From the NCBI RefSeq assembly GCF_055900595.2, contig NZ_CM148325.1: a stretch of 64,000 bases of DNA. The stretch is one strand, 5' to 3'. Positions 1,454-2,493 of this stretch are shown here, one piece after another. The notes under the pieces were generated by a model that saw nothing but the letters and a program-made list of their open reading frames with translations, was not told the DNA's origin and ran no database searches. A program made the translations under genes and the position numbers. Each line of letters opens with the position of its first letter. The first letter of the stretch is position 1.

Positions 1454-2401
1454 GTGGCACAACGAGATTATGTACGCCGCAGCCAACCGGCACCTTCGCG
1501 GCGAAAAAAAAGCACCTCACGGAAAAAGCAACGAAATCTGCCTGCGGTTTCTCCCGCAATGGTCGCTATTGCTGCCGCCGTTCTTGTGACCTTTATCGGT
1601 GGTCTGTACTTCATTACGCATCACAAGAAAGAAGAGTCCGAGACGCTGCAAAGCCAGAAAGTGACCGGAAACGGATTACCACCGAAACCAGAAGAACGCT
1701 GGCGCTACATTAAAGAGCTGGAAAGTCGCCAGCCGGGTGTGCGTGCACCAACAGAACCGTCTGCCGGTGGTGAAGTGAAAACGCCGGAGCAACTGACACC
1801 AGAACAACGTCAGCTTCTTGAACAAATGCAGGCCGATATGCGCCAGCAGCCAACGCAGCTGGTTGAAGTTCCGTGGAATGAACAGACGCCGGAACAGCGT
1901 CAGCAAACGCTTCAACGTCAGGCACAACAGCGTCAGATTCAGGCGGCTCAACAGCAGCAGCGTCAGGCTGAGCAGGCATATCAACAACCGCGTACCACGC
2001 AAGCGCAGCAACCACCGCGCCAGACGCAGCAGACTCGCCAGGCGGCTCAGCAGCCGTACCAGGATCTCCTGCAAACGCCAGCACACACTGCCGCGGCGCA
2101 GCCGAAGTCACAGCAAGTCGCGCCTGTTAGCCGGGCCGCTGACGCGCCAAAACAGACGGCGGAGAAAAAAGACGAGCGGCGCTGGATGGTACAGTGCGGT
2201 TCGTTCCGAGGCGCGGAACAGGCAGAGACGGTACGTGCTCAGCTGGCGTTCGAAGGCTTTGACTCGAAAATTACCACCAACAATGGCTGGAATCGTGTGG
2301 TGATTGGCCCGATTAAAGGGAAAGAAAATGCCGACGGCACCCTGAATCGCCTGAAGATGGCGGGTCATACAAACTGTATTCGACTCGCTACCGGGGGTTG
2401 A
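1454..2401 (+). CDS. ftsN: Cell division protein FtsN (bitopic; Q-rich linker; C-terminal SPOR domain)
   Basis: MAQRDYVRRSQPAPSRRKKSTSRKKQRNLPAV..., one TM helix, Gln/Pro-rich repeats, C-terminal WMVQCGSFRGAEQAETVRAQLAFEGF SPOR motif. Confidence 0.93.
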   Translation: MAQRDYVRRSQPAPSRRKKSTSRKKQRNLPAVSPAMVAIAAAVLVTFIGGLYFITHHKKEESETLQSQKVTGNGLPPKPEERWRYIKELESRQPGVRAPTEPSAGGEVKTPEQLTPEQRQLLEQMQADMRQQPTQLVEVPWNEQTPEQRQQTLQRQAQQRQIQAAQQQQRQAEQAYQQPRTTQAQQPPRQTQQTRQAAQQPYQDLLQTPAHTAAAQPKSQQVAPVSRAADAPKQTAEKKDERRWMVQCGSFRGAEQAETVRAQLAFEGFDSKITTNNGWNRVVIGPIKGKENADGTLNRLKMAGHTNCIRLATGG

Positions 2402-2424
2402 AACCCTCAAAATCCCCCCCATCT
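2398..2424 (+). promoter_or_regulatory. Sigma32 heat-shock promoter of hslVU (TTGAAA -35, 13 bp spacer, CCCCATCT -10)
   Basis: TTGAAA at 2398-2403 and CCCCATCT at 2417-2424 match the sigma32 consensus (CTTGAAA / CCCCATnT) just upstream of hslV. Confidence 0.6.
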
Positions 2425-2438
2425 ATAATTGCATTATG

Positions 2439-2458
2439 CCCCGTACTTTTGTACGGGG
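2439..2458 (+). terminator. GC-rich stem-loop (ccccgtac-tttt-gtacgggg) followed by TTTGT; probable ftsN terminator lying in the hslV 5' leader
   Basis: Perfect 8-bp inverted repeat with 4-nt loop read directly, followed by T-rich tract. Confidence 0.45.
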
Positions 2459-2493
2459 TTTGTACTCTGTATTCGTAACCAAGGGGTCAGCTC

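Follow-up and report, generated by a model that had tools for sequence, protein, structure and literature searches.

The 92-nt region between ftsN and hslV contains an inverted repeat located between a sigma32-type promoter and the hslV start codon. Its position raises the question of which message the corresponding RNA hairpin serves: the upstream ftsN message, as a terminator, or the heat-shock hslVU (clpQY) message, as an element of its 5' leader. We examined this region in a stretch of 64,000 nucleotides of Escherichia coli DNA (the window), the first 6 kb of which carry, according to the list of open reading frames, cytR, ftsN, hslV, hslU, menA and rraA, all on the + strand. The same annotation of these genes is found in an identical E. 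coli chromosome in RefSeq and in a K-12 derivative, and the HslV protein encoded here is identical to that of K-12. Read from 5' to 3', the intergenic region consists of the -35 element, a 13-nt spacer, the -10 element CCCCATCT, the inverted repeat, TTTGT, a 20-nt spacer, AAGGGG and GTG, and on inspection every sequence feature that the original prediction had described for this locus was found in its place (Table 1).

Between window positions 2391 and 2582 the sequence is base-for-base that of K-12, with zero differences. Immediately before it, the ftsN allele departs from that of K-12 to an unusual degree: 15 positions differ in 2300-2390, and the Q-rich linker is not the same. Of the 5425 complete E. 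coli genomes, 5290 carry the promoter and leader at 99% identity or more. Because the sequence in the window is identical to that of K-12, results obtained in K-12 can be transferred to it directly.

Table 1. Positions of the features of the ftsN-hslVU region in the window
Feature	Position	Strand	Basis
ftsN coding sequence, 315 aa allele	1454..2401	+	ORF list, RefSeq annotation of the identical genome, K-12 allele comparison
sigma32 -35 element, TTGAAA (GTTGAAA from 2397)	2398..2403	+	sequence
sigma32 -10 element, CCCCATCT, 13 nt after the -35 element	2417..2424	+	sequence
hslVU transcription start, an A	2433	+	K-12 SMRT-Cappable-seq, Supplementary Data 1; coordinate mapping and sequence identity
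Unpaired 5' nucleotides AUUAU (n=5) before the stem	2433..2437	+	fold of the native leader
Leader stem-loop; arms 2439-2446 and 2451-2458, loop UUUU 2447-2450	2438..2459	+	folds, covariation, RNAalifold, Rfam consensus structure
Rfam RF02401 ClpQY_promoter (cis-regulatory) match, full model 1-57	2439..2496	+	covariance-model score
U-rich tail UUUGU, the only terminator-like tract	2459..2463	+	sequence
Shine-Dalgarno AAGGGG, 7 nt before the start codon	2481..2486	+	sequence
hslV (clpQ) coding sequence, GTG start at 2494	2494..3024	+	ORF list and annotation
hslU (clpY), second gene of the operon	3034..4365	+	ORF list and annotation
hslVU operon terminator, hairpin 4394-4415 and T-tract	4394..4425	+	terminator scan

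Promoter and transcription start of hslVU

A sigma32 promoter was defined by a -35 element TTGAAA and a -10 element CCCCATnT separated by 13-14 nt, with a start site 7-9 nt after the -10 element. Upstream of hslV we found a 13-nt spacer, CCCCATCT at 2417-2424, where it overlaps a run of seven C residues (2414-2420), and a start at 2433; the -10 element is the one that the original prediction had pointed to, with TTGAAA 13 nt upstream of it. The pattern TTGAAA-N13/14-CCCCAT has a single match in the 64-kb window, at the hslVU promoter, against 0.015 expected, and 78 of the 81 sequences scanned, that is, the window and 80 species, carry a sigma32-type promoter built in this way.

Genetic evidence from K-12 concerns this same sequence. 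Expression of clpQ in K-12 is rpoH-dependent and heat-inducible, and it is reduced by clpQm1, a C-to-T change in the -10 element (Lien et al. 2009, PMC2681174). In addition, a 1-bp deletion at -74 from hslV, which corresponds to window position 2420, became fixed in heat-rescue evolution lines. A perfect TATAAT hexamer at 2424-2429 was also considered as the -10 element of a sigma70 promoter and rejected: the promoter scan found no sigma70-type promoter in 1300-4600, the TTGAAA hexamer is too distant from it, at 20 nt upstream, and the mapped start lies just 3 nt past the hexamer.

The transcription start was taken from SMRT-Cappable-seq, which selects triphosphorylated primary 5' ends. It was measured in K-12, whose promoter and leader sequence is identical to that of the window, and K-12 coordinates were obtained as 4,124,781 minus the window position. 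In M9 as well as in Rich medium, the K-12 hslV-hslU transcript is listed on the reverse strand at NC_000913.3 4,120,362-4,122,348; the reads at its start site, 4,122,348, number 143 under one of these conditions and 76 under the other, and its other end adjoins an annotated terminator centred at 4,120,376. The start corresponds to window position 2433, 9 nt past the last base of CCCCATCT and 5-6 nt upstream of the stem. A start around 2431-2433 had been predicted from the promoter elements, and the cap-selected start agrees with it. Since the start at 2433 is upstream and not downstream of the hairpin, the stem-loop belongs to the hslVU leader, between the sigma32 promoter and the hslV start, as had been proposed.

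The leader deduced from the cap-selected start is 61 nt long. The 5' UTR was quoted as 71 nt by Lien et al. 2009 (PMC2681174), after Chuang et al. 1993, and primer F5 used by the former authors starts at window position 2420. With either length the hairpin is inside the hslVU transcript. What is added here is a start site at single-base resolution from public cap-selected data, which shortens the commonly quoted 71-nt UTR to 61 nt.

Fold and conservation of the leader stem-loop

The inverted repeat is composed of CCCCGTAC (2439-2446), TTTT (2447-2450) and GTACGGGG (2451-2458), followed by TTTGT, and these limits are the ones originally assigned to the hairpin. In the RNA, the stem has 8 Watson-Crick pairs and an optional closing pair G2438-U2459, with a free energy of about -14.5 to -16.5 kcal/mol. 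The hairpin was the minimum free energy (MFE) structure as well as the centroid structure of the native leader (z = -2.56; -21.8 kcal/mol overall), of a longer piece (z = -2.06) and also of the sequence in the context of read-through from ftsN. Perfect GC-rich 8-bp stems with loops of 3-8 nt occur 13 times in the window (about 10 distinct hairpins); simulated sequence gives 2.9 +/- 1.8. The evidence that decides that this particular hairpin exceeds chance is its covariation across 44 species.

For the comparison among species, we used HslV as the query and took one genome per species, which yielded 80 loci from Enterobacterales, Vibrionaceae and Alteromonadales. In most promoter-carrying sequences the stem begins 4-7 nt after the start predicted by analogy, and its sequence varies from genus to genus: the arm reads CCCCGTAC in Escherichia, CCCCGCAC in Citrobacter, CCCTGAGC in Enterobacter, CCCTGCGC in Cedecea, CTCCGCGC in Tatumella and Rosenbergiella, and CCCCACAC in Hafnia. 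Far longer hairpins are present in Serratia, Yersinia, Rahnella, Photorhabdus and Xenorhabdus. Covariation was assessed on 44 short-leader sequences in a MAFFT alignment that had not been fitted to any structure. In this alignment standard pairs occupied 95.4% of the cells, as compared with 37-52% when the partners were slid by 1-3 columns, and compensatory changes on both sides were seen in 8 of the 9 pairs. Double changes were found in 61 cells, against 14.6 +/- 3.3 in shuffles, and the observed covariation score was reached by none of 500 shuffles. RNAalifold, applied independently, predicted the same nine pairs and nothing more. The hairpin, whose absence from related genomes had been named beforehand as an observation that would speak against its role in the leader, is thus conserved in its pairing across the relatives that were aligned. 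We regard this quantitative test across 44 genera and species as an addition to what was known of the element; the fold and its evolutionary conservation, like the promoter elements described above, are direct observations of the present analysis.

The same data bear on the nature of the selected object. The two arms are exact reverse complements in the DNA, and the repeat occupies +7 to +26 from the start, a position typical of repressor sites, which could point to a site acting in the DNA, for instance the operator of a dimeric regulator, if not simply to a chance inverted repeat. However, the stem sequence shifts between genera (CCCCGTAC, CCCTGAGC, CTCCGCGC, CCCCACAC, and long loop insertions) while the pairing is kept, and G-U pairs are tolerated, with, for example, 11 U-G pairs at one position. 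Preservation of pairing through sequence change, together with the tolerance of G-U pairs, indicates selection on an RNA structure and not on a sequence recognised by a protein. Furthermore, the R-IR mutant, in which another sequence takes up the same fold, is functional (PMC2681174). A chance palindrome was ruled out by the covariation controls and a DNA operator was rejected on the covariation evidence; we consider it extremely improbable that either of them accounts for the repeat.

Possible termination of ftsN, and translation of hslV

The ftsN stop codon TGA (2399-2401) is located within the -35 element of the hslVU promoter, and for this reason any ftsN terminator must fall inside the hslVU leader. 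The stop codon has this place in 67 of the 78 promoter-carrying sequences (window and species), and the recognition that it is embedded in the -35 element across Enterobacterales, which forces any such terminator into the leader, is a further addition of this work. The hairpin, with 6 G-C pairs in the stem 2439-2458, is the sole hairpin in the 92-nt intergenic region and follows the TGA by 38 nt. It could serve, mainly or in addition, as the intrinsic terminator of ftsN or cytR-ftsN transcripts; its position in the leader would then follow from the overlap with the promoter, and any stabilisation of the message would be secondary. A cytR-ftsN unit ending after ftsN has indeed been defined by SMRT-Cappable-seq. 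As in a canonical terminator, 5-7 consecutive T residues come after the hairpin in Pantoea, Tatumella, Rosenbergiella, Pectobacterium and Dickeya. We also calculated the d'Aubenton-Carafa d-score on the basis of modern energy parameters. When the stem is defined as 8 bp, the rough score is 9.5, similar to the 6.0 of the genuine hslU terminator; depending on the stem definition it ranges from 0.1 to 9.5, and being uncalibrated it can serve for relative comparison only.

Against termination as the main role, the U-tract in E. coli is just UUUGU. The tail after the stem reads UUUGUACU; the U-tract of an intrinsic terminator is taken as about five or more U in the 8 nt next to the stem. The consensus terminator scan returned no entry at this site. 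Most Enterobacteriaceae (Citrobacter, Kluyvera, Enterobacter, Pluralibacter) have C or G as the first base of the tail and a d-score well below zero, and yet they keep the stem with compensatory changes. Retention of the stem in the absence of a U-tract indicates that selection acts on the stem independently of the U-tract. Moreover, read-through transcripts covering ftsN-hslV-hslU were observed by SMRT-Cappable-seq, and an efficient terminator about 30 nt past the heat-shock start would abort the hslVU transcripts as well. The complete curated Term-seq list of Adams et al. 2021, which covers three conditions, contains no sense-strand 3' end at 41223xx; this is a weak negative result, as ftsN is weakly expressed and as very short transcripts from the hslV promoter could escape the library preparation. 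On the antisense strand there is a Term-seq 3' end at K-12 4,122,347(+), which may mark a true antisense transcript or may be a library artefact arising from the abundant sense 5' end.

The ftsN terminator proposed in the original prediction is no more than plausible. The hairpin is the only candidate at hand, and the cytR-ftsN unit speaks for it; the weak U-tract, the silence of the terminator scan, the missing Term-seq 3' end and the read-through speak against it. In our opinion it is possible, although doubtful, that the hairpin owes its presence to termination of ftsN. In E. coli, it is probably a leaky ftsN terminator at most. A leaky terminator role of some consequence, which we can suggest only tentatively, would be an addition to a stabilising role and not an alternative to it.

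The distribution of the U-tract also allows a more elaborate, and in our view unlikely, explanation, in which the hairpin is a dual-purpose element that has switched function in evolution: a terminator of ftsN and a heat-shock attenuator where the U-tract is present, and mainly a stabiliser where it has decayed. Were this so, the hairpin would terminate ftsN and act as a promoter-proximal attenuator of hslVU wherever the U-tract is full (Pantoea, Tatumella, Rosenbergiella, Pectobacterium and Dickeya), and in Escherichia, Citrobacter and Enterobacter, with the U-tract decayed, the stem would have been kept mainly to stabilise the mRNA. The E. coli hairpin would then still stop some of the ftsN transcripts and so set the ratio of the ftsN-only to the ftsN-hslVU message.

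It had also been suggested that the hairpin may affect translation. The start codon itself is not specific to this strain. GTG, which the original prediction had remarked upon for this sequence, is indeed present at 2494; however, comparison with K-12 gave GTG in both, as also stated for K-12 hslV in PMC2681174, and nearly all Enterobacterales share it. From the 110 nt read upstream of hslV, the start codon was assigned as GTG in 75 of 80 species, ATG in 4 (Edwardsiella, Proteus, Morganella and Moellerella) and TTG in 1, an endosymbiont. In the alignment of 44 species the Shine-Dalgarno columns hardly vary.

A control of translation by the leader would require that CUCU (2465-2468) mask the Shine-Dalgarno sequence, and so work as an RNA thermometer or modulate initiation at the weak GTG. 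A weak second helix does appear in the MFE structure of the native 61-nt leader, where 2460-2468 pairs with 2482-2490 and CUCU (2465-2468) faces AGGG (2482-2485), and a thermometer would be biologically sensible in a heat-shock operon. We therefore calculated the accessibility of the Shine-Dalgarno sequence from the partition function in the 44 species at 30, 37 and 45 C and compared it with shuffled spacers. In all 44 leaders the Shine-Dalgarno sequence was no more masked than in the shuffled-spacer controls, and none of the 44 was more masked than 90% of its own shuffles; the mean unpaired probability was 0.32 for the native and 0.23 for the shuffled leaders. The predicted accessibility remained almost unchanged between 30 and 45 C (0.32 and 0.34, respectively), and RNAalifold yielded the 5' hairpin only, with no conserved second helix. 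In agreement with this, Lien et al. reported that the clpQ message has no thermosensitive segment (PMC2681174). Masking of the Shine-Dalgarno sequence, as a route to the suggested effect on translation, finds no support in the accessibility test, and we consider such control by the leader very unlikely.

Message stability and comparison with known systems

The effect of the hairpin on mRNA stability, which had been put forward together with that on translation, fared differently. Mutants of the K-12 element were described by Lien et al. 2009 (Open Microbiol J 3:29, PMC2681174), and their 40-nt deletion (delta-40) corresponds to window positions 2440-2479. Both delta-40 and removal of the inverted repeat (delta-IR) resulted in less clpQ mRNA and protein and in a quicker decay of the message after rifampicin. 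Replacement of one arm by T residues (S-IR) abolished function, which was regained in R-IR, where another sequence adopts this fold (PMC2681174). The deletion, disruption and restoration mutants are in accordance with the stability effect, and in K-12, on a sequence identical to that of the window, stabilisation of the mRNA has been demonstrated to depend on structure, just as the start site and the dependence on rpoH have been established there. The same authors saw no effect of Hfq and recognised no evident motif for RNase E or RNase III (PMC2681174).

Taken together, we conclude that the region very probably represents the sigma32 (RpoH) promoter and the 61-nt leader of hslVU, with a stem-loop close to the 5' terminus that protects the message from decay. 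According to the mechanism we propose, RNA polymerase carrying sigma32 would read the -35 (2398-2403) and -10 (2417-2424) elements and initiate at A2433, and after five unpaired nucleotides the transcript would fold into a GC-rich stem-loop of 8-9 bp (2438/2439-2458/2459). Being near the 5' end, this stem-loop would shield the message from decay, and the outcome would be a higher accumulation of hslVU mRNA and protein. In E. coli mRNA decay, the 5'-end-dependent entry of RppH and RNase E is hindered by a stable 5' stem. By analogy with the ompA and papA stem-loops, it is likely that the hslVU stem hinders attack through this same pathway. In the published constructs transcription came from pBAD, so that the spacing between the 5' end and the stem was not the native one; we infer that stabilisation also operates with the native 5' end.

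The hairpin discussed here is an element that has already been published and catalogued as the leader stem-loop of hslVU (clpQY), and it was correctly re-derived from the sequence. The Rfam family RF02401, whose gathering score is 42, matches it at 63.6 bits (E of about 1e-13), and the match ends on the hslV GTG start codon (2494-2496). The family also matches the loci of Enterobacter, Pantoea, Hafnia, Serratia and Yersinia. As a discovery the locus matters little: publications of 1993 and 2009 on K-12 already cover the promoter, the leader stem-loop with its stabilising effect, and the GTG start.

When compared with Rho-independent terminators, including the leaky ones between operons, the element shares with them a GC-rich 8-bp stem, a 4-nt loop and a position 38 nt after the ftsN stop, and its equivalents in Erwiniaceae and Pectobacteriaceae carry a full U-tract, as intrinsic terminators do. 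Unlike intrinsic terminators, the E. coli stem is directly followed by only three U, is passed by read-through transcripts and has no catalogued sense 3' end.

The resemblance to the 5' UTRs of ompA and papA lies in a stable hairpin near the 5' end of the mRNA, where structure and not sequence lengthens the lifetime of the message. The classic 5' stabilisers need their stem at the 5' end or within a few nucleotides of it. Unlike the ompA and papA stems, that of hslVU is preceded by 5-6 unpaired nucleotides, a number which is reportedly at or beyond the usual limit for protection by a 5'-terminal stem-loop. The ompA and papA stabilisers are those of Emory, Bouvet and Belasco 1992 and of Bricker and Belasco 1999, as cited in PMC2681174, and the clpQ stem-loop was likened to both of them by Lien et al. 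(PMC2681174).

The closest counterpart is the 5'-UTR stem-loop of K-12 clpQ+Y+ itself, described by RF02401. The locus is the same, with 100% identity that begins at the -35 element and continues into hslV. The one sequence difference is in the flanking ftsN allele, and the published 71-nt UTR disagrees with the 61 nt obtained from the cap-selected start. The stem-loop, the Shine-Dalgarno sequence and the GTG are the same in both, and the element itself is no different from that of K-12.

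Junction of ftsN with the heat-shock promoter

The ftsN gene ends inside the sigma32 promoter of hslVU, its stop codon being part of the -35 hexamer (see the table). The same TGA terminates an ftsN-like ORF in 67 of the 78 promoter-carrying sequences (the window and other species, loci L004-L075; 81 sequences scanned), so that across the Enterobacterales the 3' end of ftsN is physically tied to the heat-shock promoter.

The ftsN allele of the window is unusual for E. coli: it encodes 315 aa versus 319, and its Q-rich linker differs from the usual E. coli form (compared region 1900-2390). 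Only 13 of 5425 genomes showed at least 99% identity across 2250-2650. In comparison to K-12, there were 15 nucleotide differences in ftsN positions 2300-2390 and none in 2391-2582, so that the divergence ends exactly at the hslVU promoter. From the sequence comparison, such a sharp boundary suggests either that the ftsN segment was acquired by recombination or that the promoter and leader are strongly constrained.

Features of the hslVU upstream region and related stem-loops (window positions unless a locus is named)
Feature	Position or loci	Remark
ftsN stop TGA	2399-2401	within the sigma32 -35 hexamer TTGAAA (2397-2403 region)
C7 run	2414-2420	
Perfect TATAAT	2424-2429	overlaps the sigma32 -10 at its downstream end
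Further perfect GC-rich 8-bp stem-loops	10141-10161, 15078-15100, 19428-19446, 38949-38969, 48867-48885, and others	from the hairpin scan
Extended-hairpin loci	L050 (Pectobacterium zantedeschiae), L044, L048, L052, L054, L065 (Photorhabdus), L069 and L070 (Xenorhabdus)	
Extended-hairpin loci, further	L031 (Siccibacter), L041 (Mangrovibacter), L034 (Rahnella)	

The leader hairpin in other species and on the opposite strand

Extended leader hairpins of 50-90 nt occur in several genera. In P. zantedeschiae (L050:1330-1503), about 115 nt were inserted within the loop, and the base of the stem, CCCCG/CGGGG, was retained. None of the six extended-hairpin loci in the Rfam scan (L050, L044, L069, L031, L041 and L034) matched RF02401, the ClpQY_promoter family, at the gathering threshold. 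In Vibrio sp. Hep-1b-8 (L081:1280-1430), the heptamer CTCGCCT is repeated in a long tandem array directly upstream of the hslV promoter region. The other perfect 8-bp stem-loops of the window are probably terminators or REP-like elements.

The Term-seq catalogue of Adams et al. 2021 contains an antisense RNA 3' end at window position 2434, minus strand (K-12 4,122,347 +), which lies 5 nt beyond the hairpin on the opposite strand and has no U-tract after it. The sense start is 1 nt away. The palindromic hairpin folds equally well on the minus strand (z = -4.5), and it could hold a real antisense end at this position. Alternatively, the signal could be a library artefact derived from the abundant sense 5' end.

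Transcription start and the -10 region

The published 5' UTR of hslVU is 71 nt long (Lien 2009, after Chuang 1993; primer F5 begins at 2420). Counted from the cap-selected start at 2433, the UTR is 61 nt, and a start at 2423 would sit within the -10 element. The perfect TATAAT was considered as a sigma70 -10 and is apparently unused, since no usable sigma70 -35 was found 16-18 nt upstream and the mapped start is just 3 nt downstream.

Two mutations became fixed in published heat-adaptation experiments: a 1-bp deletion at -74 from hslV, corresponding to window position 2420 in the C7 run (PMC7750951), and the shortening of a G run between hslV and ftsN (PMC10044804). The two changes are located in or beside the sigma32 -10, as would be consistent with selection for lower hslVU expression at lethal temperature.
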